Assembly (NCBI GenBank): GCA_964509975.1
Contig: CAZDZO010000001.1
Span: 4,006-68,005, forward strand
Source of the DNA: an uncultured Candidatus Peribacteria bacterium
Lineage (GTDB): Bacteria > Patescibacteriota > Gracilibacteria > UBA4473
Direction: 5' to 3'
Length of the DNA: 64,000 nucleotides
The notes under the pieces are model-generated. The model was not told where the DNA came from. It did not search any database and saw only the letters and a list, made by a program, of their open reading frames with translations. Numbering within the stretch: position 1 is the first letter of the stretch; the number at the start of each line of letters is the position of its first letter. Positions 2,363-54,925 of this stretch are shown here, piece after piece. The translations under genes and the position numbers were made by a program.

Positions 2363-5300
2363 TTATTTTTGAAGACGTTTACCATTTGTATCTACGTCAA
2401 GCAAGTAACCGTTCAACCAGTCAGCTGTAGTGTCTGAGTGAGAAGGATCTGATTCATCAGACCAAGCAACGGTGTCTGTTGATTTTGTAGATTTGATACC
2501 TGGTGCTTCGTAAGCAGTATCTCGTTCGAGAGTCACTGTTACACCATCTGAGTTCTCAGCACTTCCACCAAGTTCGTCTGTTAGACTTGTGAACACGGCG
2601 TAAGTTCGTGATTCACCAGCAGCGAGTCGTTCACCTGTAAGGGTTACTTTAACTACTGCTGAAGTATCGTCATCAGCGATTGCTGAACTTGCAGCTGTCG
2701 TGAATGATTGTTCAACATCAGGTGATCCGTCTACAACTCGTTGAGTTGTAAGAGCAGCAACACCAGAGAATCCCAATCCGTTCAATGACACTGTCATAGT
2801 TACGTGTCCGATTTCAGCGTTATCTGCTGAATCAGCAGTAATAGTGAATCGGTAGAACTCTGTAGAATCTGCAGAAGGCAAATTCATTGAAGGCTGTGTA
2901 GCGGCAGGTGAGATAGACAAAGCAGTGTTGTAAGCAACATATACTTGTCCTACTGCGTCTCCCCATCCAGCTGTTGGTTTGGTGATATCATCACCTGTAG
3001 CAGCTGTAACCGCTTCTACACCAGCGTGAGTAGCATTGTCAGCATCCAAAGCCAGTTGCAATTTAGCACCTGTTTGGTTTGCTTTTGAGATGTTTCGAAT
3101 GTCAGCTTTAACTATTACAAACGTTGAATCATCTTTTGGTACTCGAATTCGATCAGCGTTAGCCATTTCGAAATGCAATGATCCGCCAGCCATTGTTTCT
3201 TCTTGAATCAATTGACCGGCTTCGTTGTACAATTTGAAGTCCATTCGGTCTCCAGCGTATGGAGATGCCGTAAGATCATTCTCAATGTACAAGTCTTTAA
3301 TTTGTACTTCGTCATCAGCAGCGTTGAATCGAACTTTCAATACTTCAACATTTGATTGACCAGCAATCAAAATATCTGAAGCCACTGTAGAGTCCAATGA
3401 CACTGTCAATGTACCAGATGAAACAATTTCAAATGCTGTACCATCTACTTCATTTGAAGTAGAAATTGCAAGTACTCCGTTATCAGTAACGGTAACAACT
3501 TGTCCGTTTTCTACATTGTCTGCATCCACATCTTCCAAATCAAGTTCGAGTTGGTGTTTGAGGGTAGCAGTATGTGCTGTTTCAGTAGCAACACCAGCTG
3601 TGGTGTTAACATCTGTAATCGCACCTGTAGATACGGCAACAGCTGAGTTAACATTTCCAATGATAAACGGTGTAGCGGCTTCTGTGAAGATAACTTCATC
3701 CGTTGCACCAGAAATTGTGTATCCCGTAAGTGTTGCAGCAGCTGCTCGGATAAGTGCTGCATCTGCAGCAACTGTTCCTCCTACTTGCACGGAAGCAACT
3801 CCACCATCACAAGTAGCATCTGAAGTGGCACCTGTTGTAAATGTAATAACACAAAGAGTGTTTGGTACATCATCTGTAAGGGTCACTGTAGTTGTATTTG
3901 CCATGATTGTATCAACAGTCATAGTTGTAACACCAGCTGTACCAGCAACGGCAGCACCGTGAACGGCAACCGTTCCAGTAGTTGTAATAACTCCTGTTGT
4001 AGTATTGATGGCGGTAACAGCCAAAGCTCGGTCTGTTGTTGTCAATGTGCCAACAGCTGTTGTTGGATCTACATTTTCAACTACATCCAAGACATCACCA
4101 ACTGTAAGCAATGCTGCATTAGCCGTAGAAACGGTAACGCTTGTATCTGCTACAGCTGCTGTAGTACTTCCTGTAACGATAGAAGCTGATGCTTCAATCG
4201 TATCTACAACCACAACGAATTCTTTTTGTGAAGCTGATGGAATCACAACAGACAAGTCGTTGAATGTTGCTTTACCAGTGGTTTCATCAAGGTTCTTTGC
4301 AGATCCTTGTTGTGTACCATCTACGAATACAGCCAATGTGAAGTTTTCGTATGATCGAGCTGATCCTGAAACACCGTATGTTGAGTGAACTGTGTTAACA
4401 TCAGTGTTTGCTCCTACTGTCATAGAAGTAACATTTACGTCTCCTGAGTCGTTGTTATCCATAGTCAATTCCATGAATGTAACATCATCAACTCCTGCAA
4501 CGAGTTTGTCACCATCTGATAAACCTGAAGTTTCTGTAACAGTTACAATTGAGTCTTGTACAGTCACGAATGATCCTGTAGCAGATCCCAAAAGTCCTGA
4601 ATCAGCCACTTGGTCTCCAGTAGAAATGTATTCTGGTGATTGGAAGTCAGCAGATGCGATTTCCAATTTCAATTTGTCGCCATCAGCCGCAGCGTCTGCG
4701 ACATTAGCCACTACTTTCAAAATTGACGTTCCCGCAATTTCGAATGTTGTGTTGAAGTTCAATGTGTAGTTTGTCACTACAGCTGTTGTTCCTGATTTGT
4801 AAGCGAAGTCGTTCTCTGTGTCGACCAATTGATCGTTTAAGAACATTCGGAAGTTATCAAACACTGCGTTCATTTGAGCGAGTGTTGTAGCTGATCCGTT
4901 TCCTCCTGTTTCAGATCCTGAAGCAACATCGATGTAAACACCATCCACCAAGAGTGGTTGGTCTACAACCAATCGAGCTGTCAACATAACAACATCATTT
5001 GATCCAGCAGAGTATTCTTGATTTCCAAGTGATGAAGGATCACGTGAAACGTTCAAGTCTCCTGAGTCAATAGTGTATGTAGATAATGTAGCGTAACTAT
5101 CTTCAGCGTTGTTTCCTGATGAATCAATAGCTTTCACTCCGAATGAAGTTCCGATCTCAACTCCTACGATGTCTTCGTAGTTGTCTATCTTAAAGATAAT
5201 AGTATCAGAAGCTTCAGCAGAAACGATGTCTGCACGAAGAGAGAAGATCTTAGAGTCTCCGTCCTCAAGAACGTATCCTCCAGTCACTCCGTTGTCCAAT

Positions 5301-6685
5301 CGGAAAGTCAAGTAGTCACCATCCATGATTGATTCTGCAGATACTTGTTCACCTGAAACGTACAAAGCGACGTTTTCAAGATTATCTTCAAGTTCAGCTG
5401 TACCATCATTTTTGAAAGTAACCGCTCGTAGTTCAACATCTTTGTTCGTGTTAGACCCATTAAGCAATCGGAATTTACCGATCTCAATGAAGTTGTCTCC
5501 CACATCGATAGTTGTGTTTGATCCCAAGCTTGAGAAAGTCAAAGTTGAAACTTCATAGTCAGCAACTTCCATTTCTTCCCCTTCAATTGGAAAGTCTCCT
5601 ACAACGTTAACAGCGCTAGAAGCGACGTCATCCGCACTAACCAAAGCCATTCGACTGTGGTGTCCTACGTTTTTGTCGTCATCTCCTCCTGAGTTACAAC
5701 TACCAACACAAGTGTATTTAGCAGAAGCCACTACATCAGCGATGAGTGTTTGTCCTGCAGGCACTACTACTGGTGGGTTGAATCGAAGCTCAACAATGTC
5801 GTCGTTGTTAATAGATTTGTCGTTTCCAACTTTGAATCCATCAATTTCGAGCCATACATTATCGAAGTCGTCGTTATCTCCCAATCCCAAACGAGTGTAT
5901 GTCATAGAAGAAACTTCTACGTCAGAGTCGTCTGAAGCTGTGAGTTCAACTGTCAAGTAAGGTACTGAAGTTGAGTTGTAAGGAACGTTTGTTCCTCGTG
6001 GAGTCAAATCTGAAAGGGTAACTTCAAGAGTTCCTTCAGATGGTCCAATAATAGGTGCTACAACAAGTTGTGAGTTGTATGTAATGTGTGCAGTTTCAGC
6101 ACGAGTCACAGCGTTAGCTGGACCGAATGTACCGTCACCGTATCCACGCATCAACCCGTTGTTGTATGCTGTTTCAACGTATCCGTAAAACCAGTCGCTA
6201 TCAGAAACATCATCAAAGTGAGGTGCTCCTGAAAGGTCTTGATCAATCTCGAATGCGTTTACAACCATTTTCGCAATTTCAACTCGGTTGATACCAACTC
6301 CTGGTCGGAAAAGTCCGTCCGGGTATCCGTTGATCCATCCGTAGTTGTACATTGTTTCAACATAGTCGTAATACCAAGCGTCTGTTGATACGTCTGGGAA
6401 GTGAGGACCTCCTGTTGTATCAAAGTCTACGCCTGAAGCGAGAACGATGATTTTTGAAACTTCTGCCCGATTCAATTGTCGGTTTGGTGCAAAAGATCCA
6501 TCATCATTTCCGCTCAAAACCCCTTGGTCCATAAGCTCTTCTACAGCTTCTTCGGCCCAAGATGGGATTTCTGCTGCATCAGTGAATGGCAACATCGCAC
6601 TTGCTACTGGAGCAAAGATTGTGAATGCCATAGCTACGAAAGCTACTGATGCAACGCTTTTTTTAAGTTGACTAAATAAGTCCAT
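2363..6685 (-). CDS. S-layer-type surface protein with signal peptide and three N-terminal SLH domains
   Basis: ATG at 6685 gives the signal peptide 'MDLFSQLKKSVASVAFVAMAFTIFAPVASA'. Three SLH repeats follow ('FTDAAEIPSWAEEAVEEL..', 'FPDVSTDAWYYDYVETMY..', 'FDDVSDSDWFYGYVETAY..'), then about 1200 aa rich in T/V/A/D and likely beta-rich. The ORF track starts further upstream at a TTG. Confidence 0.8.
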   Translation of the reverse strand: MDLFSQLKKSVASVAFVAMAFTIFAPVASAMLPFTDAAEIPSWAEEAVEELMDQGVLSGNDDGSFAPNRQLNRAEVSKIIVLASGVDFDTTGGPHFPDVSTDAWYYDYVETMYNYGWINGYPDGLFRPGVGINRVEIAKMVVNAFEIDQDLSGAPHFDDVSDSDWFYGYVETAYNNGLMRGYGDGTFGPANAVTRAETAHITYNSQLVVAPIIGPSEGTLEVTLSDLTPRGTNVPYNSTSVPYLTVELTASDDSDVEVSSMTYTRLGLGDNDDFDNVWLEIDGFKVGNDKSINNDDIVELRFNPPVVVPAGQTLIADVVASAKYTCVGSCNSGGDDDKNVGHHSRMALVSADDVASSAVNVVGDFPIEGEEMEVADYEVSTLTFSSLGSNTTIDVGDNFIEIGKFRLLNGSNTNKDVELRAVTFKNDGTAELEDNLENVALYVSGEQVSAESIMDGDYLTFRLDNGVTGGYVLEDGDSKIFSLRADIVSAEASDTIIFKIDNYEDIVGVEIGTSFGVKAIDSSGNNAEDSYATLSTYTIDSGDLNVSRDPSSLGNQEYSAGSNDVVMLTARLVVDQPLLVDGVYIDVASGSETGGNGSATTLAQMNAVFDNFRMFLNDQLVDTENDFAYKSGTTAVVTNYTLNFNTTFEIAGTSILKVVANVADAAADGDKLKLEIASADFQSPEYISTGDQVADSGLLGSATGSFVTVQDSIVTVTETSGLSDGDKLVAGVDDVTFMELTMDNNDSGDVNVTSMTVGANTDVNTVHSTYGVSGSARSYENFTLAVFVDGTQQGSAKNLDETTGKATFNDLSVVIPSASQKEFVVVVDTIEASASIVTGSTTAAVADTSVTVSTANAALLTVGDVLDVVENVDPTTAVGTLTTTDRALAVTAINTTTGVITTTGTVAVHGAAVAGTAGVTTMTVDTIMANTTTVTLTDDVPNTLCVITFTTGATSDATCDGGVASVQVGGTVAADAALIRAAAATLTGYTISGATDEVIFTEAATPFIIGNVNSAVAVSTGAITDVNTTAGVATETAHTATLKHQLELDLEDVDADNVENGQVVTVTDNGVLAISTSNEVDGTAFEIVSSGTLTVSLDSTVASDILIAGQSNVEVLKVRFNAADDEVQIKDLYIENDLTASPYAGDRMDFKLYNEAGQLIQEETMAGGSLHFEMANADRIRVPKDDSTFVIVKADIRNISKANQTGAKLQLALDADNATHAGVEAVTAATGDDITKPTAGWGDAVGQVYVAYNTALSISPAATQPSMNLPSADSTEFYRFTITADSADNAEIGHVTMTVSLNGLGFSGVAALTTQRVVDGSPDVEQSFTTAASSAIADDDTSAVVKVTLTGERLAAGESRTYAVFTSLTDELGGSAENSDGVTVTLERDTAYEAPGIKSTKSTDTVAWSDESDPSHSDTTADWLNGYLLDVDTNGKRLQK

Positions 6686-7094
6686 TTTAAGCGTTTTTAA
6701 TAAATAGTAATAATCGCCCGCCATAAGCAGGCGAGTGAATTTGTTTTCATTTCTCTCTAGAAAAGAGGTCTTCAAGCGAGTTCTAAATGAGTATCCCAGA
6801 ACTCTCGACTGTCTCTTCCGGCCACGAGTTTCAAAGACCGAGATCTTTTAGCGCGCGATAGAATGGTTATTGAAAGCCCCCTTTCGAACCATTTTACAGG
6901 CGAGACGGGAACCCCGGCTGGGGGCAAGCCGTCTAAATCTTTGGAACCCTACACGGAGAGCGGAAAAAGTCAAGTTTTTCTAACACTCCGCCGCTAGAAA
7001 ATTCCAGTTATTCAAACGGACGATTCGTTACTTTGTTACGCTGTTTTAGACTTTTCTTGTTGACAGGGTCTCTAATTTGTTTTCTGGGACTCTT

Positions 7095-12559: not shown

Positions 12560-13828
12560 GACGTACTTTTATTTCCAACCGGCCAAATTGCTTCAATTAT
12601 TGTGGCATCTCTTATGGGAGCCTTCCTTGGTCTTTGGAGGGAAATGCAAGACCAAAAAAAACATCGTGACAGTTTCATGGGACTACGAACAATGACATTG
12701 CTCTGTTTACTCGGAGCCCTTTCGACAATTTTTCCACAATTCCCGGCTCTGCCATTAATTCTTTTTGGAGCCATCACGGCACTTGTTGTTATCGGTCATG
12801 CTCACGGAAATTTTGTGATGCAGCGAATTGGAATGACCAGTGAACTCACAGCTCTACTCACCTTCTTCATAGGAGTCTTGGTAGGGTTTGAACAGCAGAT
12901 ATTGGCGCTTCTTTTGACTGTGTTTTTGGGAGGGATTAATGCGTTTCGTGACGTACTTCATAAATTTGCAAAAACACTCGAACCTCAAGAATGGATTGGC
13001 CTTTTGCAGTTAGTTGCTCTTTCTGGTGTAGTCTTGCCATTTTTGCCGCGCGAAGCAATTGATCCATGGGGCGTCTTTGTACCTTTCCATGTCTGGCTAC
13101 TCGTCATGTTGATATCTGGAATTGGATTTGTGGGATATTTTCTCATTAAATATCTTGGTGCACGTGGAGGCATTCCGTTGACAGGATTTTTGGGGGGATT
13201 GGTATCGAGCACTGCCGTGACAATCTCTATGGCGACACGATCTAAAGAAACAAATCTTCCTCGAATTTTTACTGGAGGAATTCTGGTGGCTTTAGCCACA
13301 ATGCAGTTTCGTGTAGTCCTTGAAATTTTATTGTTAGGACCAAAGGAGATTTTCTCCTTTCTCTTTATTCCAATTACAATGTCCGTAGTGAGTTCTCTCT
13401 TTGCTGTATATTTCTTTGTAAAATCAAAAAGCAAAAAAACATCTTTTTTTAAAAAACCAGAACGCGTAAAACTGGAAAATCCTTTTGAGATTATTCCCGC
13501 ATTAAAATTTGGATTTATATTTTTAGTAGTCCTTTTTGCACTCGCTTTGGGAAAACGATACTTCGGAGATTCTGGGGTTTACGTTGCAGCATTTTTGTCT
13601 GGAGTAGTTGATATTGATGCGATTGTGCTTTCCTCTTTAGAGTCCATAAAACTCGGCGAACTAAGTAATCAAGTCGCTTATAACGCCATCGCAATTGCTC
13701 TTTTTACCAACACACTTGTGAAGGTGGGATATGTAGGAATCATGGGATCAAAAAGCGTCTTCCGAAAAGTTTCACTGGCTACTGTCGCCGTAACATTGGT
13801 AGGAATCGGAGTTTTCTTATTGACGTAA
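12557..13828 (+). CDS. MgtC/SapB-family membrane protein with DUF4010-like C-terminal half
   Basis: Polytopic membrane protein. N-terminal 'LMGAFLGLWREMQDQKKHRDSFMGLRTMTLLCLLGAL' resembles the MgtC signature. Confidence 0.55.
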   Translation: MDVLLFPTGQIASIIVASLMGAFLGLWREMQDQKKHRDSFMGLRTMTLLCLLGALSTIFPQFPALPLILFGAITALVVIGHAHGNFVMQRIGMTSELTALLTFFIGVLVGFEQQILALLLTVFLGGINAFRDVLHKFAKTLEPQEWIGLLQLVALSGVVLPFLPREAIDPWGVFVPFHVWLLVMLISGIGFVGYFLIKYLGARGGIPLTGFLGGLVSSTAVTISMATRSKETNLPRIFTGGILVALATMQFRVVLEILLLGPKEIFSFLFIPITMSVVSSLFAVYFFVKSKSKKTSFFKKPERVKLENPFEIIPALKFGFIFLVVLFALALGKRYFGDSGVYVAAFLSGVVDIDAIVLSSLESIKLGELSNQVAYNAIAIALFTNTLVKVGYVGIMGSKSVFRKVSLATVAVTLVGIGVFLLT

Positions 13829-14079
13829 AGGGAATTTCGGGTAGTTTTTAAGTGTTCTTTTTTGACGTATCTAAATCCTGTTGAACGGCTATCCCCCGTG
13901 ATTTCTTCGTCCGAAGAACAGGAGCGCGAAGAACCCTTTTGGGGAAGTAGATCGCGTCGTTTTTGTTTTAACGTTGAACGTTATCAACTAATTAAGTAAC
14001 AATTCGAGATGGTACCGTCCCGCCTGTCGGGGCTCTCGTGAAGATTCCCTTCGCTTATTTTTTGTTTACAATATCTTGT

Positions 14080-17000
14080 ATGAAAAACATTTTTCCCTCG
14101 TTCGACCCTCAAAAATCAATTGCTGAACACGAAACCGATATTTTGAAGTTTTGGAAAGAAAACCAAATTTTTGAAAAATCTGTTAATCGTCGTGCCAAGC
14201 GCAATGAATTCGTGTTTTTTGATGGGCCTCCGTTTGCAACGGGAACACCGCATTATGGACACATACTAGCGGGAGCAATTAAAGATGTGATTCCACGGTA
14301 CAAAACCATGCAAGGATACCGCGTCAATCGAAAATGGGGATGGGATTGCCACGGAGTTCCGGTGGAATTTCAGGTGGAAAAGGAACACCGCATTGGTGGA
14401 AAACCGGGTATTGAAAAAATGGGAGTTGGGAAGTTTAATGAACTCTGTCGAAGTGTCGTCTTGCGATGTGCTGACCAGTGGGAATCAACCGTTGATCGCA
14501 TGGGACGATTTGTGAATTTCAAAGACGATTACAAAACCATGGATCCCGAATTCATGGAATCGGTCTGGTGGGTTTTTGGGGAATTATGGAAAAAGGGACT
14601 CATTTATGAAGGAGAAAAAGTGGTCTCCTATTCTCCGAAGCTCGGAAGTCCTCTTTCTAATTTTGAAGCAAATTTAAATTATAAAGATATTGATGATCCA
14701 GCGGTAACAGTAAAGTTTGAGCTAACAGAAGAATCGAAAACATATTTCTTAGCTTGGACGACGACCCCTTGGACGCTGTTATCGAATTTAGCCTTAGCGG
14801 TGAATCCGAAACTCGAATATGTGAAGGTAAAAAACGAAGAATCTGGAGAAAGTTATTGGCTCGGAAAAGGCGTACTTGAAAAATACGGCATCACTCAAGA
14901 GGGAGAATATACGGAATTTTGGAACGAAGTTGAACGACGAAAAGGAAAAGATCTCATCGGAAAATCTTACACGCCACTTTTTCCTTTCTTCGAGAATCAT
15001 GAGAATGCCTTCCAAGTTCTCTCGGCTGATTACGTGTCGGCAGAAGAGGGGACGGGGATCGTTCATCAGGCCCCGAATTTCGGGGAAGACGATGCCAAGG
15101 CCTGTCATGAAAATAACATTGGACTTCTTGAAAATCCGATTGATGAGCATGGATTTTTTAATGACAAAATTACTGAACTCAAGGGAAAATATTTTCGAGA
15201 TGATCCGGAAGTAGAAGGTTCCGTGGATGACAATGCAAACAAGTGGGTCCTTGATAATTTGGGGACGAAACTCTTTATGAGAAATCAAATTCGACACTCC
15301 TATCCACACTGTTGGAGAACAGATTCTGCATTGATGTATCGAGGAATTAAAACGTGGTTTGTTGATGTGCAGAAAATTAAGAAAACTATTTTAGAACAAA
15401 ACCAAAACATTAATTGGGTGCCAGAACATTTGAAAGATGGTCGATTTGGGAAGATGCTTATTGATGCTCCGGATTGGGCGATTAGTCGAAACAGATACTG
15501 GGGAACTCCAATTCCTGTGTGGCGATGTGACGCGTGTGGAGATATCGAGGTGATGGGATCGCGCGCAGATCTTGAGAAAAAAATTGATAAAAAAGTTGAG
15601 GATCTCCATAAACATTTTGTTGATGATATGGAGTGGGGATGTGCGAAATGTAAGGGGAAAATGAAACGTATCGAGGAAGTGCTCGACTGTTGGTTTGAGT
15701 CTGGGGCGATGCCGTATGCGAGTCAGCATTATCCGTTTGCGAACAAAGAAAAGGATGTTGAACTTCGAGAAGTAAAAACAACGAAAGACTGGGAAACGTA
15801 TCATGAGCTTGTAAAAACCGAACTTTTTGAAAGACTTCTTCCTTCTCTTGTTTATGACAAAAATTATCCTGATGGAATAAACCCAAAGACCGTTTCCAAA
15901 ATCTTGTTTTTGAAAGATGAACCGATTGGAGTTCTTTCCTATGGTCCCGCTGATGCATATAATTCATTGAAAGAATATGCCCCCAAGGATTCTCTCTTTT
16001 TACGATTCATCGCTATCAAGAAAGAGTTTCAAGGCAGAGGATTCGGTCACTCCGCCATAAAAGATTTCAAAAGTTTCGGTTACGAAAATAATTTTGAAAA
16101 TTTAATTTTAAATTCTGCTCCTGGTGCCGTAGGGTTTTATGAAAAACATGGATTTGAAAAGGATTTTTGGACAGGACATGCTGAAACAAATCCTGAAAAC
16201 ACCCCTTTTGGAAAAAAATCTGAAATCGAAAATCTGAAATCGAAAATTGCCGATTTCCCGTCTGCTGACTTCATTGCCGAGGGACTCGATCAAACACGTG
16301 GATGGTTCTACACCCTGCATGTTTTGGGATGCGCGTTGTTTGGAAAAAACATCTTCAAGAACGTGATTACCAATGGAATCGTCTTGGCAGAAGATGGACA
16401 AAAGATGTCCAAGTCCAAGAAGAATTATCCAGATCCAAATATTATTTTTGATAAATACGGAGCGGATGCGATGCGATTTTATATGCTCAATTCTCCAGTT
16501 GTAAGAGGAGAGAATTTCAGGTTCGCCGAGAACGGTGTCGCTGAAGTATTGAAACAAATCATCTTGCCACTGCGTTCGAGTTATCAGTTTTTCTCGACCT
16601 ACGCGAACATCGATAATTGGCAACCAACCAAGTTTCTCTTTGTTCGGCACGGGGAAGGCGACCATAATGTCGCTCATATTTATTCTGGAGATGTGAAGAA
16701 CAAACATCACCTGACAGAGAAGGGTCGAGCACAAATTACCGAAACCGCGAAACACATTCGAAATTTTGATGTCCTTGTTGCATCTCCTTTCATTCGAACA
16801 CAAGAGACCGCTGAGATTCTGAAAAAAGAATGTAAATTTGAAGGCGAAATTATTACTGACGATCGAGTGCGAGAACTCTTTTTTGGAAAACTCGAAGGCA
16901 AGCCCTTCCTTCCAAAAACAGAACGACTCTCAAATAAAGAAACCGAACAACCTGAAGCGGTGGCAAAACGAGTGTCTGAATTCATGTCCGATATGGCGCA

Positions 17001-18219
17001 GAAATATCCAGGAAAAACGATTGCTGTCGCAAGTCACGGAGGTGCTGTTTTGGAAGCGATTGCGATGACCAATCGTGTACCGCACGGGACAGAAGATTAC
17101 TTGCGAGTCTTCCAACCGCCTACGGGAACCGAAACCGTCGTGTTCGCCGAACCCGTTCCTCAGACCGAACTCGATCAATGGATTTTGTCTGAACTACAGA
17201 CCCTCATCGAGCAATACAAAAATCATTTCGATGCCTACGATTTAGAAGGAGCGTTGAAACTGATTCCTGGATTTATTGATAACCTAAACAATTGGTATTT
17301 GCGTCGTTCTCGTCGTCGATTCTGGGCACCTGACATGAGTGAAGAAAAACAATCTGGGTACGAAACGCTTCATCACGTACTCTTCATGGTGTCGAAAATA
17401 TTGGCCCCTGTCTGTCCATTTTTCGCGGAAGATTTGTTTCAGAAACTCGCACATGGAGAATCTGTTCACCTTACCTTTTTCCCTTTTGCGAAAAAAGAAT
17501 GGCAGAATGAAAAGATTGAAGACAAGATTCGTCTTTCTCGAGAAATCGTAAGTTTGGCCGCTGGAATCAGGGCACGAGCAAAGGTAAAACTCCGACAACC
17601 GCTTGAGAAATTACAATTCATGACCACGGACAAGGCGAACCTCGATCTTGATATTTTAAAAGAAGAGGCCAATGTAAAAGCAGTGGAACAACTCACTTCT
17701 GTTGAAGGTTTGGCTGATCGTGTTGTCCGCGTTAATGCCAAAAAAGTTGGCCCACGTCTCGGAAAAAAAGTGCAAGAAATCATTGCGAAAGGAAAATCTG
17801 GCGACTTTGAACTTTTGAAAAATGGAGATGTGAAAATTGCGGATGAGATTCTTACGGGTGAAGAATTTAGTTTTGGATTCGTTTGTGAAGAAGGGGTAGA
17901 AGCCGAAGCCACCGCTCGAACCGTAGTTATTCTCAATACAGAAATTTCTGAAAATTTGAAGTTGGAGGGATTCTCCCGAGAAGTTATTCGAGCCATTCAA
18001 GAGCTTCGAAAGAAAAAAGATTTCGATATCGCTGATCGTATTTCGATCCGGTACGCTACCGACTCGATTGCAATAAAAGACGTGTTCAAAACGTTTGAAT
18101 CGCTCATTGCTGGAGAAACTTTGGCTGAGGAAATAATTCATGGAGAGGTCAGTGATCCACTCGAAGAGCTCGATGTCGATGGGGAGAAACTGACGTTGGA
18201 GATTGCAGTAGTGGAGTAA
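14080..18219 (+). CDS. ileS: isoleucyl-tRNA synthetase with two inserted enzymatic domains
   Basis: HIGH motif 'PHYGHILAG', KMSKS motif 'GQKMSKSKKN', 'WAISRNRYWGTPIPVW' and 'AEGLDQTRGWFYTL'. ATG at 14080 ('MKNIFPSFDPQK') is preferred over the GTG at 14038. Total length about 1379 aa, versus the roughly 1000-1050 aa I expect for this IleRS type. Confidence 0.93.
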   Translation: MKNIFPSFDPQKSIAEHETDILKFWKENQIFEKSVNRRAKRNEFVFFDGPPFATGTPHYGHILAGAIKDVIPRYKTMQGYRVNRKWGWDCHGVPVEFQVEKEHRIGGKPGIEKMGVGKFNELCRSVVLRCADQWESTVDRMGRFVNFKDDYKTMDPEFMESVWWVFGELWKKGLIYEGEKVVSYSPKLGSPLSNFEANLNYKDIDDPAVTVKFELTEESKTYFLAWTTTPWTLLSNLALAVNPKLEYVKVKNEESGESYWLGKGVLEKYGITQEGEYTEFWNEVERRKGKDLIGKSYTPLFPFFENHENAFQVLSADYVSAEEGTGIVHQAPNFGEDDAKACHENNIGLLENPIDEHGFFNDKITELKGKYFRDDPEVEGSVDDNANKWVLDNLGTKLFMRNQIRHSYPHCWRTDSALMYRGIKTWFVDVQKIKKTILEQNQNINWVPEHLKDGRFGKMLIDAPDWAISRNRYWGTPIPVWRCDACGDIEVMGSRADLEKKIDKKVEDLHKHFVDDMEWGCAKCKGKMKRIEEVLDCWFESGAMPYASQHYPFANKEKDVELREVKTTKDWETYHELVKTELFERLLPSLVYDKNYPDGINPKTVSKILFLKDEPIGVLSYGPADAYNSLKEYAPKDSLFLRFIAIKKEFQGRGFGHSAIKDFKSFGYENNFENLILNSAPGAVGFYEKHGFEKDFWTGHAETNPENTPFGKKSEIENLKSKIADFPSADFIAEGLDQTRGWFYTLHVLGCALFGKNIFKNVITNGIVLAEDGQKMSKSKKNYPDPNIIFDKYGADAMRFYMLNSPVVRGENFRFAENGVAEVLKQIILPLRSSYQFFSTYANIDNWQPTKFLFVRHGEGDHNVAHIYSGDVKNKHHLTEKGRAQITETAKHIRNFDVLVASPFIRTQETAEILKKECKFEGEIITDDRVRELFFGKLEGKPFLPKTERLSNKETEQPEAVAKRVSEFMSDMAQKYPGKTIAVASHGGAVLEAIAMTNRVPHGTEDYLRVFQPPTGTETVVFAEPVPQTELDQWILSELQTLIEQYKNHFDAYDLEGALKLIPGFIDNLNNWYLRRSRRRFWAPDMSEEKQSGYETLHHVLFMVSKILAPVCPFFAEDLFQKLAHGESVHLTFFPFAKKEWQNEKIEDKIRLSREIVSLAAGIRARAKVKLRQPLEKLQFMTTDKANLDLDILKEEANVKAVEQLTSVEGLADRVVRVNAKKVGPRLGKKVQEIIAKGKSGDFELLKNGDVKIADEILTGEEFSFGFVCEEGVEAEATARTVVILNTEISENLKLEGFSREVIRAIQELRKKKDFDIADRISIRYATDSIAIKDVFKTFESLIAGETLAEEIIHGEVSDPLEELDVDGEKLTLEIAVVE
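15754..16248 (+). other. GNAT N-acetyltransferase-like domain inserted in the IleRS catalytic core
   Basis: 'LFLRFIAIKKEFQGRGFGHSAIKDF' (the Q/RxxGxG/A acetyl-CoA motif) and 'APGAVGFYEKHGFE', lying between the IleRS blocks 'HYPFANKE' and 'ADFIAEGLDQTRGWFY'. Confidence 0.8.
16627..17166 (+). other. histidine phosphatase (PGAM/cofactor-dependent mutase superfamily) domain inserted in IleRS
   Basis: 'FLFVRHGEGDHN' (RHG motif), 'LTEKGRAQ', 'VASPFIRTQETAEIL', 'ELFFGKLEGKP' and 'IAVASHGGAV', lying between 'FFSTYANIDNW' and 'LDQWILSELQ'. Confidence 0.8.
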
Positions 18220-18275
18220 TAGACTTGATTTTAGCTTTAATTCGTGGTACAATCTCCCGATTTATTAGCTTATTC

Positions 18276-18590
18276 ATGGTAGAATTTAAATTCACAATCG
18301 ACGACACTTCGGATGTTGAGGTATCCGAACCAAAGAAAAAACGAAAACGAAAGCGAATTGAACATGTTAAAGTCGAGAGCACAAAAGAAATTGCCGCACG
18401 TATTGCAGAAAAACAAGGAATCCCTTATGGGAGAGCCTTTGAACTCGCCAAAATCCAAAAGCAAAAAGAGATTGCTGATATGACAAAGTCTCGTGCAGAA
18501 AGATTGATTCCTCCAGATGCCTCACCTGAAATAAGGGCTTTTGCCTTGAGCTTGGTTAAAAATAAAACACAAGAAAAACGCGCGAGTTGA
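18276..18590 (+). CDS. small basic hypothetical protein
   Basis: ATG at 18276 ('MVEFKFTIDD..KKKRKRKRIE'). The ORF track begins at an upstream TTG. TGGTACAAT, an extended -10-like motif, lies at 18245-18253. Confidence 0.45.
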   Translation: MVEFKFTIDDTSDVEVSEPKKKRKRKRIEHVKVESTKEIAARIAEKQGIPYGRAFELAKIQKQKEIADMTKSRAERLIPPDASPEIRAFALSLVKNKTQEKRAS

Positions 18591-20087
18591 TCAGTGTAAA
18601 AACGCCCGCATCTCCGTCAGCACCATCGCCATCCCGAGTTCATCTGTTTTTGCAAACACTTCTGGATCTTTTACCGATCCTCCGGGCTGAATAATTGAGC
18701 TTATTCCTGCAGCTCCCGCCGCCTCCACGGCGTCCGGAAAGGGAAAGAAAGCATCTGATGCCAAGACCGCATCTTTGGCATGTTGACCTGCTTGATCAAG
18801 AGCATTTTTCATCGCATCTACACGTGATGTCTGTCCTCCGTTTGCACCAATGAGTGCTCCATCTTTCACAACAACTATTGCATTTGATTTTACGATTTTC
18901 ACTATCCGCCATGCGGTTTCGAGATCATACCATTCATCGTCAGTTGGTTTTTTTGTAGTGGCTACTTTGAGATTTCCGAAGTCGGGATTTACAATGTCGG
19001 CATCTTGTATCAATGTTCCTCCTCGCACTTTTTTAACGACAATATCGGATGTCCTTTTATCGAAATTCGGAACTTTGAGCACACGTAGATTCTTTTTTGT
19101 TTTCAAAACTTCAAGTGCATCGTCATCGAAATCCGGAGCCAAAACAACTTCGTTAAAGAAGTCGATAATTCCCTCTGCAACCACCTTTGTTACTTTTCGG
19201 TTCAAAGCAATAATGCCTCCAAAAGCAGATACTCGATCTCCCATTTTAAAAGCTTTTTCAAAGGCTTCATCGATATTTTTTCCCATCGCTGCACAACACG
19301 GAGAAGCGTGTTTGATGATGCAGGCAAATGGTTTTTCGAAACTCATCGCAAGTTCCAATGCGCCGTTTGCGTCTCCAAAGTTGTTATAAGAAAGTGGTTT
19401 TCCGTTAAGAAATTCTGCATGTACTAAGTTCGCTCCTGTTGAAAATGGATCTTCTAAAATCACTGCTTTTTGATGTGGATTTTCTCCATATCGTAGTGGC
19501 ATTTTTTCAGAATTTTCATTCCAGAATTTCGCAATGAGAAGATCGTAGTGCGCTGTCATTTCAAATACTTTTGTGGCGAGTAATTTCTTGAATTTCAACG
19601 ACACGTTTTCATTTTTAAATTCCTCCAGAACACTATCATAATCTACTGGATCAACCACTGGTAAACAAAATTCATAGTTCTTTGCCGCGGCACGAATCAT
19701 TGATGGTCCTCCGATATCAATCTGTTCTACTTTGTCTTCAAATGATTTGGAATCGTCTTCGTAATTCTTTTTAAACGGGTATAAATTCACTACTACTAAA
19801 TCAATATTTTCGATGTTGTTTTCTTGGCAAAATTTCTGGTGTTCTGTGTTGTTGCGCAAATTCAAAACCCCTCCAAAAACTTGTGGCGTGAGTGTTTTGA
19901 TTCGCCCCTCAAGTCCTTCTGGAAATCCAGTGAAATCAGCCACTTCGATGAGGTTTTTAACACCCTCTTTTTTCAACTTCTTGAACGTTCCGCCTGTAGA
20001 AATAATCCGGAAGTCCAATGCCTCCAGTCCTTTTGCAAGCTCAACGATTCCTGTTTTATCCGAAACCGAAATCAAAGCATTTTTCAT
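18591..20087 (-). CDS. purH: bifunctional AICAR transformylase / IMP cyclohydrolase PurH
   Basis: 'MKNALISVSDKTGIVELAKGL..ISTGGT' MGS-like N-terminus and an AICARFT body. The upstream ATG at 20105 lies inside the GTCAT repeat, so 20087 is preferred. Confidence 0.9.
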   Translation of the reverse strand: MKNALISVSDKTGIVELAKGLEALDFRIISTGGTFKKLKKEGVKNLIEVADFTGFPEGLEGRIKTLTPQVFGGVLNLRNNTEHQKFCQENNIENIDLVVVNLYPFKKNYEDDSKSFEDKVEQIDIGGPSMIRAAAKNYEFCLPVVDPVDYDSVLEEFKNENVSLKFKKLLATKVFEMTAHYDLLIAKFWNENSEKMPLRYGENPHQKAVILEDPFSTGANLVHAEFLNGKPLSYNNFGDANGALELAMSFEKPFACIIKHASPCCAAMGKNIDEAFEKAFKMGDRVSAFGGIIALNRKVTKVVAEGIIDFFNEVVLAPDFDDDALEVLKTKKNLRVLKVPNFDKRTSDIVVKKVRGGTLIQDADIVNPDFGNLKVATTKKPTDDEWYDLETAWRIVKIVKSNAIVVVKDGALIGANGGQTSRVDAMKNALDQAGQHAKDAVLASDAFFPFPDAVEAAGAAGISSIIQPGGSVKDPEVFAKTDELGMAMVLTEMRAFLH

Positions 20088-20188: not shown

Positions 20189-21439
20189 CTAAGTTCTGAT
20201 CTGAAAGATCTCTGCCGAATTTGGATTGGCAAGGAGTCTATTTTGTAAAACCTTATCGACCGTTTCTTTTGAAGCTTCTTTGAAGTTCCAGCATCGGAAG
20301 ATACGAACTCTTACCTCTGTATCAAACATTGTTGAAAGCTTCTCACTAAGCGCCACCGCTGAGTCGTCTTCAAAGGGAAGGACTGCATATTTGAATTCAA
20401 CGGATCCGGATCCCGACTCAATAAGCACCTCTTTATTTGGGTTATAAATCAATCCAGATTCAAACAATTTTTTCTTGGGATCCGGATCCCCTTCAACTTC
20501 AATTTCATACAAGAAAGATTTTTCAAATTCTATTTTTTCACCCGCAATATTGCTGGCAGTTTGTGAAACAGAAAAAGCTTCGTTATCCGTGATAAGGAGT
20601 TTCTTTTCCATCACAATCGCAACTTCTTTAAGTTCTAGAGTTGGTGTTTCTGGAACTTCAACTTTACTAAAATCTCCAATTTCAACACTTTCCGGAGAAC
20701 GTCCTGCTTTAATCCATTCGTTCATTGATTTCATAATCTGGTCTCCATCACATGAAGCATAAAACCGCTCAGGATGGGGCATAATCGCACCCACTGTTCC
20801 CTCCTTGTTTACTATCATTGCGGTAGCGAAAAGAGCTCCGTTTGGAGTAATTGGAAAATTTGCGTCGACATTTCCTTCCTCATCACAGTATCGGAACGCC
20901 ACTTGACTTCCTTCTTCAAGAACTCGTAAAGCTGTTTTATCAATTGATGTGAATCGTCCTTCTCCATGTGCCACTGGCACCTTCAATAATTCTGAAACGT
21001 TATGAGAAAACGCCGTATCTTTTCGTTCTGGTTTGATATTTACCCACACATTGTAGTACCCCGTTCCGAGTACTTTTCCTTCCTTGTCTCGGCGAACATT
21101 GTCGGCGAGCGAGAATGGCACAGGGTTGTCTCCGACCGGAATCAATCCTGATTCTACAATCATTTGAGCTCCATTACACACCCCAAGAATCACTTTTCCT
21201 TTCTTGGCTTCTTCTCGAATAGCGTCGAATATTTTTTCTCGTGCGGCAATTGATCCTGATCGTCCTCGATCTTCAAATGAAAATCCTCCAATCAAAAAAT
21301 ATGCATCAAAGTTTCCTATTTTTTCAATTTCGTTCCAAAGCACGAGTTCTGCTTCAAATCCATTTCTTTCTGCCGCACGAATAGATTCTGATTCGCAATT
21401 ATTTCCAGGGAACGTGATAACGGCAAGTTTTGGGGTCAT
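20189..21439 (-). CDS. purQ: FGAM synthase glutaminase PurQ fused to two tandem PurS-like domains
   Basis: ATG at 21439 ('MTPKLAVITFPGNNCE'). 'LGVCNGAQMIV' holds the Cys nucleophile; 'AHGEGRF' and 'MPHPER' are also present. C-terminal ~165 aa contain two PurS-like repeats, ending 'GLIYNPNKEVLIE' and 'LLANPNSAEIFQI'. The longer ORF-track N-terminus overlaps rmuC and is rejected. Confidence 0.8.
   Translation of the reverse strand: MTPKLAVITFPGNNCESESIRAAERNGFEAELVLWNEIEKIGNFDAYFLIGGFSFEDRGRSGSIAAREKIFDAIREEAKKGKVILGVCNGAQMIVESGLIPVGDNPVPFSLADNVRRDKEGKVLGTGYYNVWVNIKPERKDTAFSHNVSELLKVPVAHGEGRFTSIDKTALRVLEEGSQVAFRYCDEEGNVDANFPITPNGALFATAMIVNKEGTVGAIMPHPERFYASCDGDQIMKSMNEWIKAGRSPESVEIGDFSKVEVPETPTLELKEVAIVMEKKLLITDNEAFSVSQTASNIAGEKIEFEKSFLYEIEVEGDPDPKKKLFESGLIYNPNKEVLIESGSGSVEFKYAVLPFEDDSAVALSEKLSTMFDTEVRVRIFRCWNFKEASKETVDKVLQNRLLANPNSAEIFQIRT
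20402..20413. repeat. single GGATCCGGATCC unit in frame (GSGS) in the PurS-like region
   Basis: Exact 12-mer. Confidence 0.8.
20478..20489. repeat. single GGATCCGGATCC unit in frame (DPDP) in the PurS-like region
   Basis: Exact 12-mer, 64 nt from the unit at 20402. Confidence 0.8.
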
Positions 21440-21506
21440 TTGTGAGCGAATTGTAAGGCAAAATGCATTTTTAAAAAAGTAAAAAATCGGTACACTCTTC
21501 GCGCAC

Positions 21507-22553
21507 ATGGAGATAATCTTAATAGTTGTTGGGGTATTAATACTCGCTGGAATTGGGCTGGTTTTTTGGAAGCTAAATTCTTCGGGAGAAAACGGGAACC
21601 TGTTGAATGAATTAAAACAAGACCGAGAAACACGATTTCGAGAAGCCGAAAGTTTGCGAAATGAGATGAGAGAAAGTTCAAAAATACTTCGAGAACAATT
21701 TGATCGAGTGAATAAAACGGTAGATACAAAATTATCAGACTCTTCAAAACAATTGAACGAACGACTCGATAAATCCTCTAATGTGATTGGAAATTTGCAA
21801 AAAGAACTCGGGAAAATGGGAGAAATTGGGTCAAAAATTGAAAATCTCGATAAAATCCTCCGTGCCCCAAAAGGCCGTGGTGGAATGGGAGAAGAGAGTT
21901 TGGAAGAAATTTTGCGATCAGTATTTCCAGCAAATTTATGGGAACGACAATTTAATCTTGGAACGGGACTCGTGGTAGATGCGGTTGTGAAAACTTCCAG
22001 TGGGATTATCCCTATTGATGCCAAATTTCCGCTTCCCGCATTTGAAAGAATTGTACAAGCAGAAAATGATGATGCATTGGAAAAAGCGCAGAAGGAATTT
22101 CAAAAAGATATGAAACTTCGAATTGATGAAGTTGCGAAATATATTCGTCCAGAGAAGGAAACGATGGACTTTGCAATTCTCTTTTTGCCAAACGAAAACG
22201 TGTACTACGAAGCTGCGATTCGTTCTGGGGAAATCAGTGAATACACAAAGAAAAAGAAGGTCCTCCTCACGGGGCCAAACACGATGCTCTACGTACTTCA
22301 AATGTTATTTCAGGCGTATCAAAGTCAAGAATTCGCTCGTGAAGCACAACACGCATTGGCAGAGCTTTCAGGGGTAAAGAAGCAAGCTGAACGACTGGAT
22401 GAAGAAATTGGAGTTTTAGCAAAACACATCGGAAATGCGAACTCGAAAGTGTCTGACGTACAAGGGGAAAACATGAAACTTCAAAATCAAGTCGAACGAG
22501 CGCAAGCGCTTGAATCCGACCTTACACAACCACAACAAGATAAACTTCTTTAA
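21507..22553 (+). CDS. rmuC: DNA recombination protein RmuC
   Basis: N-terminal TM segment, coiled coil, then 'LRAPKGRGGMGEESLEEIL' and 'VDAVVKTSSGIIPIDAKFP', typical of RmuC. Confidence 0.8.
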   Translation: MEIILIVVGVLILAGIGLVFWKLNSSGENGNLLNELKQDRETRFREAESLRNEMRESSKILREQFDRVNKTVDTKLSDSSKQLNERLDKSSNVIGNLQKELGKMGEIGSKIENLDKILRAPKGRGGMGEESLEEILRSVFPANLWERQFNLGTGLVVDAVVKTSSGIIPIDAKFPLPAFERIVQAENDDALEKAQKEFQKDMKLRIDEVAKYIRPEKETMDFAILFLPNENVYYEAAIRSGEISEYTKKKKVLLTGPNTMLYVLQMLFQAYQSQEFAREAQHALAELSGVKKQAERLDEEIGVLAKHIGNANSKVSDVQGENMKLQNQVERAQALESDLTQPQQDKLL

Positions 22554-34707: not shown

Positions 34708-37700
34708 TTATTCTCGAAGAATCTTTGGTTTTTCCATTCGTTTAATTTTTACGTCATTTTCATTATCCAATTTGATTTGTTCTCGACCAGAATTTGGATC
34801 AAGTGGGTTCCATGAATTTCGTGTTGGATAGTAATATGGAGCAACCTCTTTTTGATCATAATATTCTCGCGTTCTCAGATATGTCTCAATATCTGAACTC
34901 TTCATCCGTCGTGTTCCAAGTCGTCCCTGTTCTTCTTTTTCTTCTCCTCTGAATTTCAAAAGGAAACGCTTGAAAGCGTTTTCTGGTGTAAATGTTTCTT
35001 TTTTATGATTTACCGCTTGCACAAACCATGTTGCAAACTCTCCTCGGGTGATTTTTTTGTTATGGTAAAAGAATCGACCAGAAGCAAATGTTTTAAACCA
35101 TCCCGCTTGCTTTGCGGCAACAAGCATCGGTGCAAGTGGATCATTTTTAAGAACGTCACTGTAAGACGTTGTTTTTGCTTTTGGATTAATATCAAGCGGA
35201 AATACTGAAGACATTGCTAAAAGAACCTCTTCTCTTGTCGGTGGCTCTTCTGGTAATATTTTGAGATCAATAATCCCCTCCTTCATGGCCGTATAAAAGA
35301 GAAGGCTTTCCAATTTATTTTGAAGTGGAAAGTCTAAAATTTCTGGAAGCTGCGCTTTTTTGAGTGTCGGATAATCTTCTGTCGGAATACAGTTTGCCGC
35401 AAAAAGAAGTTGCAGTACCTGACTCCATGTTACCGTATCGTTGGGTTTAAATTTGTTTTCCTCATCAATATGAATAACTCCATATGAATCCATTATCATA
35501 ATATCTTCAACGTAGAGATGTCTCTGAGAAACATCGCTACAGTATTCTAAGCGTGGTTTTTCATTTAAACAAATCCCTTCTTTTTTTGCTGATGCAAGAT
35601 AGCTTTCTCCCCCATCAAGTGTTCTTCGCTCTGCCCCCAAAAGTCCAGTTACTCGCTGTGCCACATACGGTTGAACTTTGAATTCATCAACTGCCAGTCG
35701 ACCTGATTTATATCCGACAAAGAGGTCTCGTCCATATGCATCTGTTCTCGTAACAATTTCACCTTCTACTCCTTCATTAAGTTGTTTTACTTGTTCAAGG
35801 GCGAATTTATATCCTTTCTCTGCAATTCGAAGCAATTCATCTTGCTTCATTCCTGCCCACCGAAGAGCAATCTTCCCGCTCGGATCAATATCAATAAGTC
35901 CATACTCTCCTTGAATTTTTCCAGGATCCGTAAGGAGTTCTAGTATCGGAGAAATTCTCAAGTCTTCTCTTTCAAGGGCAATTGTTTCTTCGTATTTTAA
36001 ATACATTGGATTGTACATTCGCACCAAATATTCACTATCTCCTGGGATATTAAGAGAATACTCTCCTTGCCAATCTGTTGTTGTTTCGAAGGAGTATCCT
36101 CCATCAATAAATTTCACAATAACTCCTTGAACAGGTTCGCTATTCGTATTAAGAAGCTGTCCTGTTACGTGCACTCCTCGCTGAACATCAATGATTTGAG
36201 AAGTGAGGGCATTTGTTTGATCAAGTACCAGTATTTGTCCTTCCAAGAAGGTATTCGGGAAAGTGATTATTCCAAGTCCGACTGCTGTTGTATCGTCTTG
36301 TGTGAGTGAATTTAAGTTGCCATCTTTAATTTCAAAGATTTCTAACTTCGCACTTGCTTTTCCATTGAGTGTAAGATCAATAAATCCCTGAATGAAAAGT
36401 TGGTCATCAATAAGGTTGTTGAATACTGGATTTTCTCCATCCTCTGCTACATAAAAAACAAATCCTGGAGCTTTCACAACTTGCCCATCTGTATGGATAA
36501 ATTCCGCAGAAAGCGTATGTGTTCCTGCTTCAAGCGGAAGTTCGATAAAAGTGCGTCCAGAAGCATCTGCAACTCCTGTTGCAATCACTTCTCCTGAAGC
36601 ATTTTTTACTGCTACATGTCTTCCTACTGGTGCTTTTGCAATGAAAGTAAATGGGGTATCTGTTGTTTTTTCAGATGTTGTTTGTGGAAAAAGAAGGAGA
36701 ACTCTATGATCACTCGAATCACTTGGATCAGTTCCATCTGTTGATTCTGTTCCGTCAAAAACACTGTCCCCATCTGAATCTGTTTTTGTTGGATTCGTAT
36801 TGGCTTGATATTCTTGCAGGTTTGTTAGTGTATCAGAATCCACATCAGTGCTAGCATCGCTCGGATTATTTTTATCTAGTCCGTACAAATCCTCCCACCA
36901 ATCTGGCATCAAGTCTGAATCCGTATCTGTTGGCTGATTAGTTGCTGTTTTTACATTTTCTGCATTCCCAAGATTATCAACTGAGAAATATTTCACCGTA
37001 TAATAATCTCCATCAAACGTAATATTCTCTGACAGAATAGATGTTCCCGTTGTACTTTCTGTTGTTGGTGTAGTTCCATCTGTTGTGTAGTACGTTTGAG
37101 CAACCCCCGAACTCACTGGTGCATCGCTTGGCGTAAGTGTTATGGTAAAAGGTGTCGTTGGTGGTATCTCTGTTGGAGCGTCATGCATTGTTACCGGAAC
37201 CGTTCTATCTACTTTTACAATAACCACTGTGCTCTCCCTTGTGTTTCCCGCTAAATCGGTAGAAATAACTTTAAAACTATATTCTCCATCTTGATTCGTT
37301 CCGTCAGCTGTTCCGTCATCAGTGAAATAATACGTACCTGTGTCTGGAGATGTCTCAGTAGTTGATATTTGAGTAAAATCAAAATCATTGTCTCCAGAAA
37401 GCGCCTCATCTCCGTTTTGATCAAATCGCGCATATGTCACAATCGAATCAATCCCCGAATTAACATCCACCCCTGTTGAAGTGAAGGCTGTGGAGTTGGC
37501 TGCTACAAATCCATTATTTGTCGTCAAATCAAGTGCTAAAGCAAAAGTTGCCGTTGGTGCAAGCGAGTCTACTTTTACTTCAATATCTTGTGGCGTTTCC
37601 GAATTCCCGGCTTTATCTATTGAGAAAACACTGAGAGTGTTTACACCATTCATGTTAAATAAAATCGGAACTACGTAAGGCGCTATCCCTGCTGAATTTT

Positions 37701-54822: not shown

Positions 54823-54925
54823 ATTGACAAAGTACAAAGTTTTAAAAATTCGTCAACCACCCTTTTACTTCTTTTTTTCATTTCAATTCGCTTTCTGTGA
54901 GCGAGTTTTTTACAATACCCCCGAC

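Follow-up and report, generated by a model that had tools for sequence, protein, structure and literature searches.

The isoleucyl-tRNA synthetase (IleRS) of an uncultured Candidatus Peribacteria bacterium (Patescibacteriota; Gracilibacteria; UBA4473), a member of the candidate phyla radiation (CPR), carries an acetyltransferase domain of the GNAT superfamily inside its catalytic core. The gene, ileS, lies in a stretch of 64,000 nt (the window) that covers positions 4,006-68,005 of the forward strand of contig CAZDZO010000001.1 in the metagenome-derived assembly GCA_964509975.1. All coordinates below are window positions, and residue numbers are those of the 1379-aa IleRS unless another numbering is named. 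Our analysis confirmed that the insert is a genuine domain with the GNAT fold, placed in frame within the second half of the Rossmann fold of the IleRS, and we are highly confident of both its identity as a GNAT and its character as a guest cassette. On balance, we favor the view, built on sequence comparison, that it is an autonomous and probably active guest acetyltransferase lodged in a permissive loop of the synthetase.

The host protein is a bona fide type-2 IleRS. It scored 882.9 bits against the ileS equivalog model TIGR00392 (cutoff 621.4) and was matched by the Pfam models tRNA-synt_1, Anticodon_1 (PF08264) and, at its C-terminus, DUF5915 (PF19302); the closest solved structures in a phmmer search of the PDB were all of the eukaryote type (8wnd, 9w01, 7d5c and 8c8v). 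Its scores against the mupirocin-resistant enzymes MupA and MupB (NF000257/NF000258; 702.6 and 707.4 bits, below the 1900-bit cutoff) reflect generic type-2 similarity only. The gene is a single open reading frame (ORF) without interruption, which opens with a GTG at 14038, the downstream ATG given in Table 1 agreeing with the homologs. It is flanked by an MgtC-like gene and, on the other side, by a 121-aa ORF followed by purH. A first-pass annotation of this DNA, made from the letters and their translations, had reported a GNAT domain in the core of an IleRS with intact HIGH and KMSKS signatures, and both signatures were found by translation.

The limits of the insert could be read from the same structural alignment. 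Residues 13-559 correspond to positions 9-550 of 8wnd and residues 729-839 to positions 556-666, so that about 170 residues stand where this solved IleRS has 5. In other IleRS the loop replaced by the insert has 5-10 residues, which is in line with the earlier estimate of roughly ten residues elsewhere and about 165 here. The translated junctions read ...FANKE|KDVEL... and ...KIADFPS|ADF..., and the segment first proposed as the GNAT (15754-16248, residues 559-723) falls within them. Profile parsing assigned residues 595-694 to three GNAT families above their cutoffs: PF00583 (30.4 bits; cutoff 20.7), PF13673 (29.6; 23.6) and PF13508 (28.1; 27). AlphaFold2, run with eight homologous inserts, modeled residues 556-730 at a mean predicted local distance difference test (pLDDT) of 88.8 and a predicted template modeling score (pTM) of 0.83. 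Foldseek returned 731 PDB matches for this model at E<=0.001, and the best 50 of the 731 were almost all GNATs; PaiA, GCN5/PCAF, SpeG, NatD and many other GNATs matched with probability 1.0 and template modeling scores of 0.6-0.7. The domain assignment made at first pass is therefore borne out by profiles, model and motifs alike.

The residues expected of a working acetyltransferase are also in place. The glutamine and last glycine of motif A (QGRGFG) are invariant across the GNAT family alignment, as are N678, F686 and Y687 of motif B; the tyrosine of motif B is the usual general acid of GNATs. The tryptophan and lysine of the C-terminal signature DFW...P.GKK are likewise invariant, and this signature is common to free-standing and UvrC-nested homologs. 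Among the IleRS-nested copies, Q96, G101, N123, F131, Y132, W142 and K157 (numbered within the insert) do not vary. Such conservation suggests that the domain is probably catalytically competent. The insert has a lower GC content than its flanks (0.36-0.38 vs 0.41-0.46). Its C-terminal linker contains a perfect tandem repeat of AAAATCTGAAATCG, a 14-nt unit whose length is not a multiple of three, and which is possibly a junction scar.

Other kinds of intervening element were considered and rejected. An intein is contradicted by the lack of any Hint, intein or LAGLIDADG match in Pfam and by junctions that, as translated, carry no splice motifs, in agreement with the first reading. A group I/II intron or ribozyme is contradicted by the lack of an Rfam family match and by the homology of the whole insert to a protein domain; the Rfam scan of 13800-18600 at E<=1 gave two matches only, both at chance level. 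Sixteen contigs, obtained with several assemblers from several samples, encoded the identical 1379-aa protein with the same neighbors. Of two contigs compared with the window base by base, one (L083) was identical and the other (L084) differed by a single synonymous base. A mis-join, raised at the outset as a possible source of error, is thus very unlikely. No second ileS was found within the 64-kb window. The variants of the window GNAT were all clonal, with one synonymous difference, and all other homologs are about 30% identical to it.

A structural model of residues 1-1190 (pLDDT 87.5, pTM 0.77) gave a confident host fold in which the GNAT (residues 561-713) and a histidine phosphatase (851-1022) form compact domains. 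pLDDT dropped below 50 only at residues 556-558 and 717-722, which are the N- and C-terminal linkers of the GNAT. The local order is a short strand (VL), the helix CWFESG/MPYA, the GNAT insert, the strand DFIAEG, the helix LDQTRGWF..., the strand VITNG and the KMSKS loop. Based on the modeled secondary structure, the cassette enters the helix-to-strand connection between the helix after WFESG and the N-terminal end of strand DFIAEG. The N-terminal edge of parallel Rossmann strands lies, as a matter of general topology, opposite the substrate pocket; the insertion point should thus sit on the edge away from the catalytic pocket. The GNAT had been described at first pass as inserted just before the KMSKS loop, and a GNAT fold as fixed next to the active site. 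The 47 residues between the two bear out the position in the sequence, but this position does not establish proximity to the active site, and the topology of the fold suggests the opposite edge. In the model, the GNAT is most likely a separate globule, tethered by its linkers to a surface loop that tolerates insertion.

The histidine phosphatase is a second nested domain of the same protein. The structural alignment breaks again where residues 839 to 1030 face positions 666 to 691 of 8wnd, leaving an insert of about 165 residues between the KMSKS/stem-contact-fold region and the anticodon-binding domain. The domain retains its RHG and SHG motifs and is modeled with a pLDDT of 93-97. In comparison with the nearest GNAT-bearing relative (L003) this domain, at site 851, was about as conserved as the scaffold (73-100% per 30-codon block). 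Some IleRS of the clade carry two or three such domains. The coordinates of all these features are given in Table 1.

Table 1. Position of the nested domains and of host landmarks in the window
Feature	Window position	Strand	Basis
ileS, type-2 (eukaryote-like) isoleucyl-tRNA synthetase, 1379 aa	14080..18219	+	ORF, TIGR00392, Pfam, PDB alignment
HIGH signature HYGH, residues 58-61	14251..14262	+	translation; invariant in 44-sequence alignment
Host segment CWFESGAMPYASQHYPFANKE, strand end and helix before insertion point	15688..15750	+	PDB alignment, secondary structure, translation
Nested GNAT cassette with linkers, residues ~556-728	15745..16263	+	Pfam, PDB alignment, AlphaFold2, Foldseek, HMM
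GNAT motif A, QGRGFG, residues 651-656, acetyl-CoA pyrophosphate-binding loop	16030..16047	+	alignment, translation
GNAT motif B, NSAPGAVGFYEKHGF, residues 678-692 (N...FY)	16111..16155	+	alignment, translation
Family-specific C-terminal signature DFW...P.GKK	16162..16221	+	alignments
Perfect 14-nt tandem direct repeat (AAAATCTGAAATCG x2) inside C-terminal linker	16215..16242	+	repeat search
Host segment ADFIAEGLDQTRGWFY, resumption of Rossmann fold	16264..16311	+	PDB alignment, secondary structure, translation
KMSKS loop, residues 775-779, 47 residues past insert	16402..16416	+	translation
Nested histidine phosphatase (His_Phos_1), residues ~845-1029	16612..17166	+	Pfam (E 1.4e-25), PDB alignment, model

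To place the cassette in its lineage, we surveyed the 120 best IleRS homologs, all from Candidatus Gracilibacteria, Peregrinibacteria or Peribacteria. Inserts were classed with custom hidden Markov models (HMMs), the classes were confirmed by Pfam checks, and insertion hot spots were taken from a MAFFT alignment. At least six hot spots occur in the IleRS of this clade, after window residues 220, 283, 304, 520, 552/554 and 851. At site 554, where the window GNAT resides, different homologs hold a GNAT, a histidine phosphatase (His_Phos), the two in tandem, a P-loop kinase (AAA_18/AAA_33), a Ser_hydrolase, two HAD domains or an unannotated 'YAKIRGW' domain, the last of which recurs at three IleRS sites. 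GNATs are found at sites 220, 520 and 851 in addition to 554, and His_Phos domains at sites 520, 554 and 851. A GNAT is present in 17 of the 120 homologs and at least one His_Phos in about 105. DUF559 (homing-endonuclease-like) domains are in frame at sites 220 and 520 (P0004, P0006, P0085 and P0088), and IS200-like Y1 transposase domains (Y1_Tnp) at sites 283 and 304 (P0059, P0067 and P0089); these two classes of insert are located in the CP1 and zinc-knuckle regions.

Variation at the loop extends to the nearest relatives. The nearest genomes, at 87-91% identity, are L004, L005 and L069, each of them an uncultured Candidatus Peribacteria bacterium. Within the closest clade (core identity of at least 83%), site 554 is empty and reads ASHHFMGEEKDFPSADF in P0003 to P0006, L001, L004 and L069, the last three having about 90% core identity to the window; L005 and P0040 have only His_Phos there, P0002 (L003) has a GNAT together with His_Phos, and P0007 has another type of GNAT. 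L001 shows the same gene order as the window (peptidase M16, MgtC, ileS, purH), and L003 preserves the ileS-purH pair; thus, the ileS loci of these two relatives and the window are orthologous. The window and L003 are 89% identical in the core and 32% identical in the GNAT. In blocks of 30 codons, amino acid identity between these two was 70-100% (mostly 80-100%) along the scaffold, fell to 17-47% in the GNAT and recovered immediately after it. Across relatives, the scaffold showed 80-100% amino acid identity vs 70-90% nucleotide identity, as would be expected of a sequence under strong constraint. The window GNAT was 29-36% identical to IleRS-nested, UvrC-nested and free-standing relatives alike, and is therefore no simple vertical orthologue of its nearest neighbor's GNAT.

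These comparisons do not support the idea that the insertion is permanent, since at about 90% core identity the loop of relatives is empty or filled by another cassette, and the GNAT of the nearest GNAT-bearing relative is 32% identical against 89% for the scaffold. A survey of related IleRS for the same insertion had been proposed at first pass; GNATs do recur, at four sites, but patchily, and the loop is empty in several of the closest relatives. The cassette looks like a lineage-variable, interchangeable guest rather than a device specific to IleRS, and its gain, loss or replacement may have proceeded by insertion or recombination at the DNA level.

A different kind of insert was seen at the very same loop in L007, where an in-frame 84-nt element (4660-4748) resembling a miniature inverted-repeat transposable element (MITE) ends in inverted repeats of 11 nt and contains a perfect 8-bp GC hairpin (CCCCCCGC-AAA-GCGGGGGG). 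A similar hairpin recurs upstream in that locus (440-458). Because it bears this element in L007, the site-554 loop can be regarded as a DNA-level insertion hot spot. In other homologs, DUF559 cassettes are flanked by peptides (for example, SPLTRGAGGV and PLNPPLSEG) that resemble translated GC-rich palindromes; palindromes of this kind were absent from the window.

The origin of the GNAT was traced with a profile made from nine of the IleRS-nested copies, which was searched against a set of 1.84 billion representative proteins. Matches at E<=1e-10 numbered 677, most of them free-standing proteins of about 150 aa. An HMM built from 110 free-standing homologs only recovered the insert with 120.2 bits (E 6e-37) over profile positions 5-153, that is, over its full length. 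The insert thus most likely derives from a widespread family of free-standing GNATs of about 150 aa, as judged from these profile matches. Its nearest solved relatives by sequence were SACOL1063 of S. aureus (5jph/5jq4) and YjcF of B. subtilis (1q2y), with E 4e-14. The best matches outside IleRS were UvrC proteins with a GNAT nested in their RNase H-like endonuclease domain. A GNAT of this type (type-I-like) was present in 32 of 120 Gracilibacteria UvrC homologs, always at one position (for example, P0123 at locus L080, 5001-7313, and 31 others, P0272-P0298 etc.). Against the free-standing HMM, 29 of these copies scored 103-177 bits and 3 more distant ones 46-59 bits. Other UvrC homologs carry DUF559 or nucleotidyltransferase (PF10706/PF14907) inserts.

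In UvrC, host and GNAT identities are correlated (r=0.70). The signature YH.I / Q..G.G / N / FY / W.G / P.GK is at least 90% conserved in the 29 closer UvrC-nested copies and is the same as the invariant signature of the IleRS copies. The correlation together with the shared signature suggests long-term purifying selection on an active enzyme, and argues for an acceptor site of the nested GNAT that does not depend on the host protein.

If the GNAT is an autonomous guest, the IleRS would aminoacylate tRNA-Ile as usual, and the GNAT would bind acetyl-coenzyme A (acetyl-CoA), acetylate the ordinary acceptor of its family, probably an amine-bearing small molecule or protein, and use the synthetase only as a scaffold for expression and stability. 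We regard the autonomy of its function from IleRS chemistry as slightly the more probable state of affairs. Several observations weigh against this interpretation. The IleRS of this clade have captured GNATs repeatedly and about 105 of the 120 keep a histidine phosphatase, so that some cassettes may be tied functionally to the synthetase; an arms race over a ligand related to IleRS could explain why the GNAT has diverged so extremely relative to the scaffold; and the cassette is bordered neither by terminal repeats, inverted or direct, nor by target duplications, so that its mobility mechanism is hypothetical.

The first two of these points lead to the alternative that the GNAT works in cis as an accessory of the synthetase, N-acetylating Ile-tRNA(Ile), a mischarged tRNA or a non-hydrolysable mimic of isoleucyl-adenylate. 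It might serve growth or quality control in the manner of ItaT and TacT, or provide built-in immunity to an adenylate-mimicking antibiotic in the manner of MccE and RimL. This alternative stays alive because of the repeated recruitment of GNATs, the almost universal retention of His_Phos and the resemblance of the cassette repertoire (acetyltransferase, kinase with a weak match to chloramphenicol phosphotransferase, hydrolases and phosphatases) to drug-modifying enzyme classes, which the nucleotidyltransferases of UvrC, similar to aminoglycoside nucleotidyltransferases, would also fit. It is further consistent with the nesting of the GNAT in the catalytic domain shortly before KMSKS, with a GNAT that diverges much faster than the scaffold, as an arms race predicts, and with the existence of GNAT toxins that acetylate Ile-tRNA (ItaT; PMC7367177). 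However, members of the same family stand alone in many bacteria or are nested in UvrC, the acceptor-side signature being conserved, and GNATs occupy four spatially different sites in IleRS. TacT, AtaT, ItaT and MccE are absent among the best structural and sequence matches, the Pfam assignments are PF00583, PF13673 and PF13508 rather than the RimL/MccE-type PF13302, the insertion point appears to face away from the pocket, and PADLOC gave no match. We therefore consider a cis-acting role unlikely. The first-pass annotation had linked the domain to Ile-tRNA through TacT, AtaT and ItaT; given a family that is both free-standing and nested in UvrC, the occurrence of GNATs at four IleRS sites and the absence of these toxins from the best 50 structural and 60 sequence matches in the PDB, this functional idea is weakened, not refuted. 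A purely regulatory module, in which the GNAT would sense acetyl-CoA or auto-acetylate IleRS lysines (for example, near KMSKS) and so couple charging to metabolism, appears less probable again. The acetyl-CoA-binding motifs are intact, the modeled flexible linkers tether the domain within the catalytic core, and other bacteria are known to acetylate lysines of class I synthetases. Yet the closest relatives do without a GNAT, the same domain exists in UvrC and on its own, and no IleRS residues co-varying with the insert were found on inspection of the local loop.

Patchy presence among near relatives also invites the opposite explanation, a selfish or neutral in-frame insert that has no current function, is tolerated by a permissive loop and is heading to decay or loss. 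The acceptance of a MITE-like element by the same loop, the DUF559 and Y1-transposase-like inserts in the same gene family, the lower GC content and the orphan state of the window GNAT (about 30% identical to every relative) would all agree with it. Such an insert would hardly be expected, however, to diverge by about 70% in sequence and still keep every catalytic and CoA-binding residue that is invariant in the family, to match the domain over its full length without frameshift or stop, or to give a confident, compact model; in UvrC, moreover, the GNAT co-diverges with its host and retains its signature, pointing to long-term purifying selection. We judge this explanation improbable, about on a par with the regulatory one and marginally ahead of it. 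An assembly chimera or pseudogene, the canonical ileS lying in another part of the genome, is the least credible alternative by far. The source is metagenome-derived and the genome was inspected within the window, which leaves it some room, but 16 contigs, which come from several samples and assemblers, encode the identical protein next to conserved neighbors, the frame is uninterrupted and the scaffold strongly constrained, dozens of related genomes have cassettes at the same loop, and the 64-kb window contains no other ileS. An autonomous guest enzyme thus remains the reading that we prefer. A role in anti-phage defense was also considered and rejected, PADLOC having given no match for either the GNAT or the His_Phos module.

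The general architecture of an IleRS with a GNAT domain has already been recognized by curators, as the NCBIfam model NF040702 ('ileS_w_GNAT') indicates. The window protein falls outside this family: it scored 278.9 bits against a cutoff of 1999, with the best stretch confined to residues 11-254. Its score against the type-1 IleRS of S. aureus (1ffy) was similar (284.6 bits), which suggests, short of proof, that NF040702 describes a type-1 enzyme, whereas the window IleRS is of type 2 with a C-terminal DUF5915. The SACOL1063/YjcF-like GNATs share the signature YH.I..E.F / Q..G.G / N...FY / W / P.GK with the insert, but they are independent genes and the window GNAT is nested in another enzyme. 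The GNAT of UvrC offers the closest parallel in that it belongs to the same subfamily and is an in-frame loop insert in a housekeeping enzyme of the same lineage; it is stably co-inherited with its host (r=0.70), whereas the GNAT of IleRS is patchy.

TacT, AtaT and ItaT have the GNAT fold and the use of acetyl-CoA in common with the family of the insert, and ItaT acetylates Ile-tRNA(Ile) (PMC7367177). These toxins come from toxin-antitoxin operons, whereas the window GNAT lies inside an essential ileS without an antitoxin partner. Neither they nor MccE/RimL appeared among the best 50 Foldseek matches or the best 60 hmmsearch matches in the PDB. RimL and the C-terminal domain of MccE are GNATs that detoxify synthetase inhibitors by alpha-amino acetylation, a conceivable role for a GNAT borne by a synthetase. 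Both belong to the RimJ/RimL-type Acetyltransf_3 group. For this group (PF13302) the window protein gave no match at E<=0.1, the only GNAT families found being the three named above.

Aminoacyl-tRNA synthetases are preferred hosts of domain insertions (PMC13114784). As in the case of the connective polypeptide 1 (CP1) editing domain and the LeuRS-specific domain, the window GNAT is flanked on either side by the continuing host fold; those inserts, however, are ancient, fixed and functionally coupled to aminoacylation, whereas the GNAT appears recent, differs between near relatives and is found in a second, unrelated host as well. Essential proteins can tolerate mobile sequences in frame in their surface loops, as was reportedly described for the palindromic elements of Rickettsia by Ogata et al. 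in 2000. Unlike such elements and inteins, the window cassette encodes a complete enzyme and has neither terminal inverted repeats nor splicing motifs. In the full-text literature, subscription journals not covered, we found no account of an IleRS that contains a nested GNAT or His_Phos, and none of cassette hot spots in the synthetases of CPR bacteria.

Taken more broadly, the essential enzymes IleRS and UvrC of Gracilibacteria-lineage CPR bacteria could offer landing sites to domain-sized enzyme cassettes that insert in frame and are drawn from a common pool, an idea that we put forward tentatively. The pool might comprise GNATs, histidine phosphatases, P-loop kinases, nucleotidyltransferases, hydrolases, DUF559 and Y1-transposase-like domains together with MITE-like repeats, and it is conceivable, at the same tentative level, that cassettes move between hot-spot loops, alleles and host genes as a domain-level mobile system of 'nested genes'. 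In a sharper version, the drug-modifying-like cassettes may be built-in immunity of the enzyme that carries them. If true, a mobile system of in-frame cassettes in CPR housekeeping genes, for which we found no description in the full-text literature, would be considerably more novel than the single insertion. Synthetases are the textbook case of ancient, fixed insertions; here, whole foreign enzymes sit in the catalytic core, and near relatives differ in what each loop holds. Should the cassettes be autonomous passengers, they would provide a natural map of the places at which a class I synthetase tolerates insertion and may illustrate how accessory enzymes are packaged in the housekeeping genes of ultra-small CPR genomes. 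Should they act on IleRS ligands, they would represent quality control or antibiotic immunity of a new kind, built into the enzyme itself. There is also a warning for annotation: NCBI names one of the IleRS homologs just 'GNAT family N-acetyltransferase', others being listed as 'isoleucyl-tRNA synthetase/GNAT superfamily N-acetyltransferase'.

Within the window, no further copy of any cassette was found outside ileS. The valyl-tRNA synthetase (54644-57532, +; 962 aa) has about 107 residues before its tRNA-synt_1 match and contains no nested enzyme domain. Small genes flanking ileS differ between close relatives (13829-14079 and 18225-18590 in the window; 5494-5988 in L001; 5606-6768 in L003). 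The 121-aa ORF after ileS in the window is rich in lysine, a 164-aa ORF precedes ileS in L001 and L002 and is missing from the window, and L003 has a free-standing DUF559 gene after ileS. A GATase_5 (PurQ-like) ORF at 20189-22024 (-) measures 611 aa from a TTG start and 416 aa as called in relatives; its extra N-terminal part overlaps an RmuC-like ORF on the opposite strand and is probably an artifact of ORF listing. Three putative surface proteins, all on the minus strand, are encoded at 2363-6775 (1470 aa, SLH domains), 34708-42141 (2477 aa, Laminin_G_3 and fn3) and 57602-59266 (554 aa, Kazal inhibitor domains and SLH).

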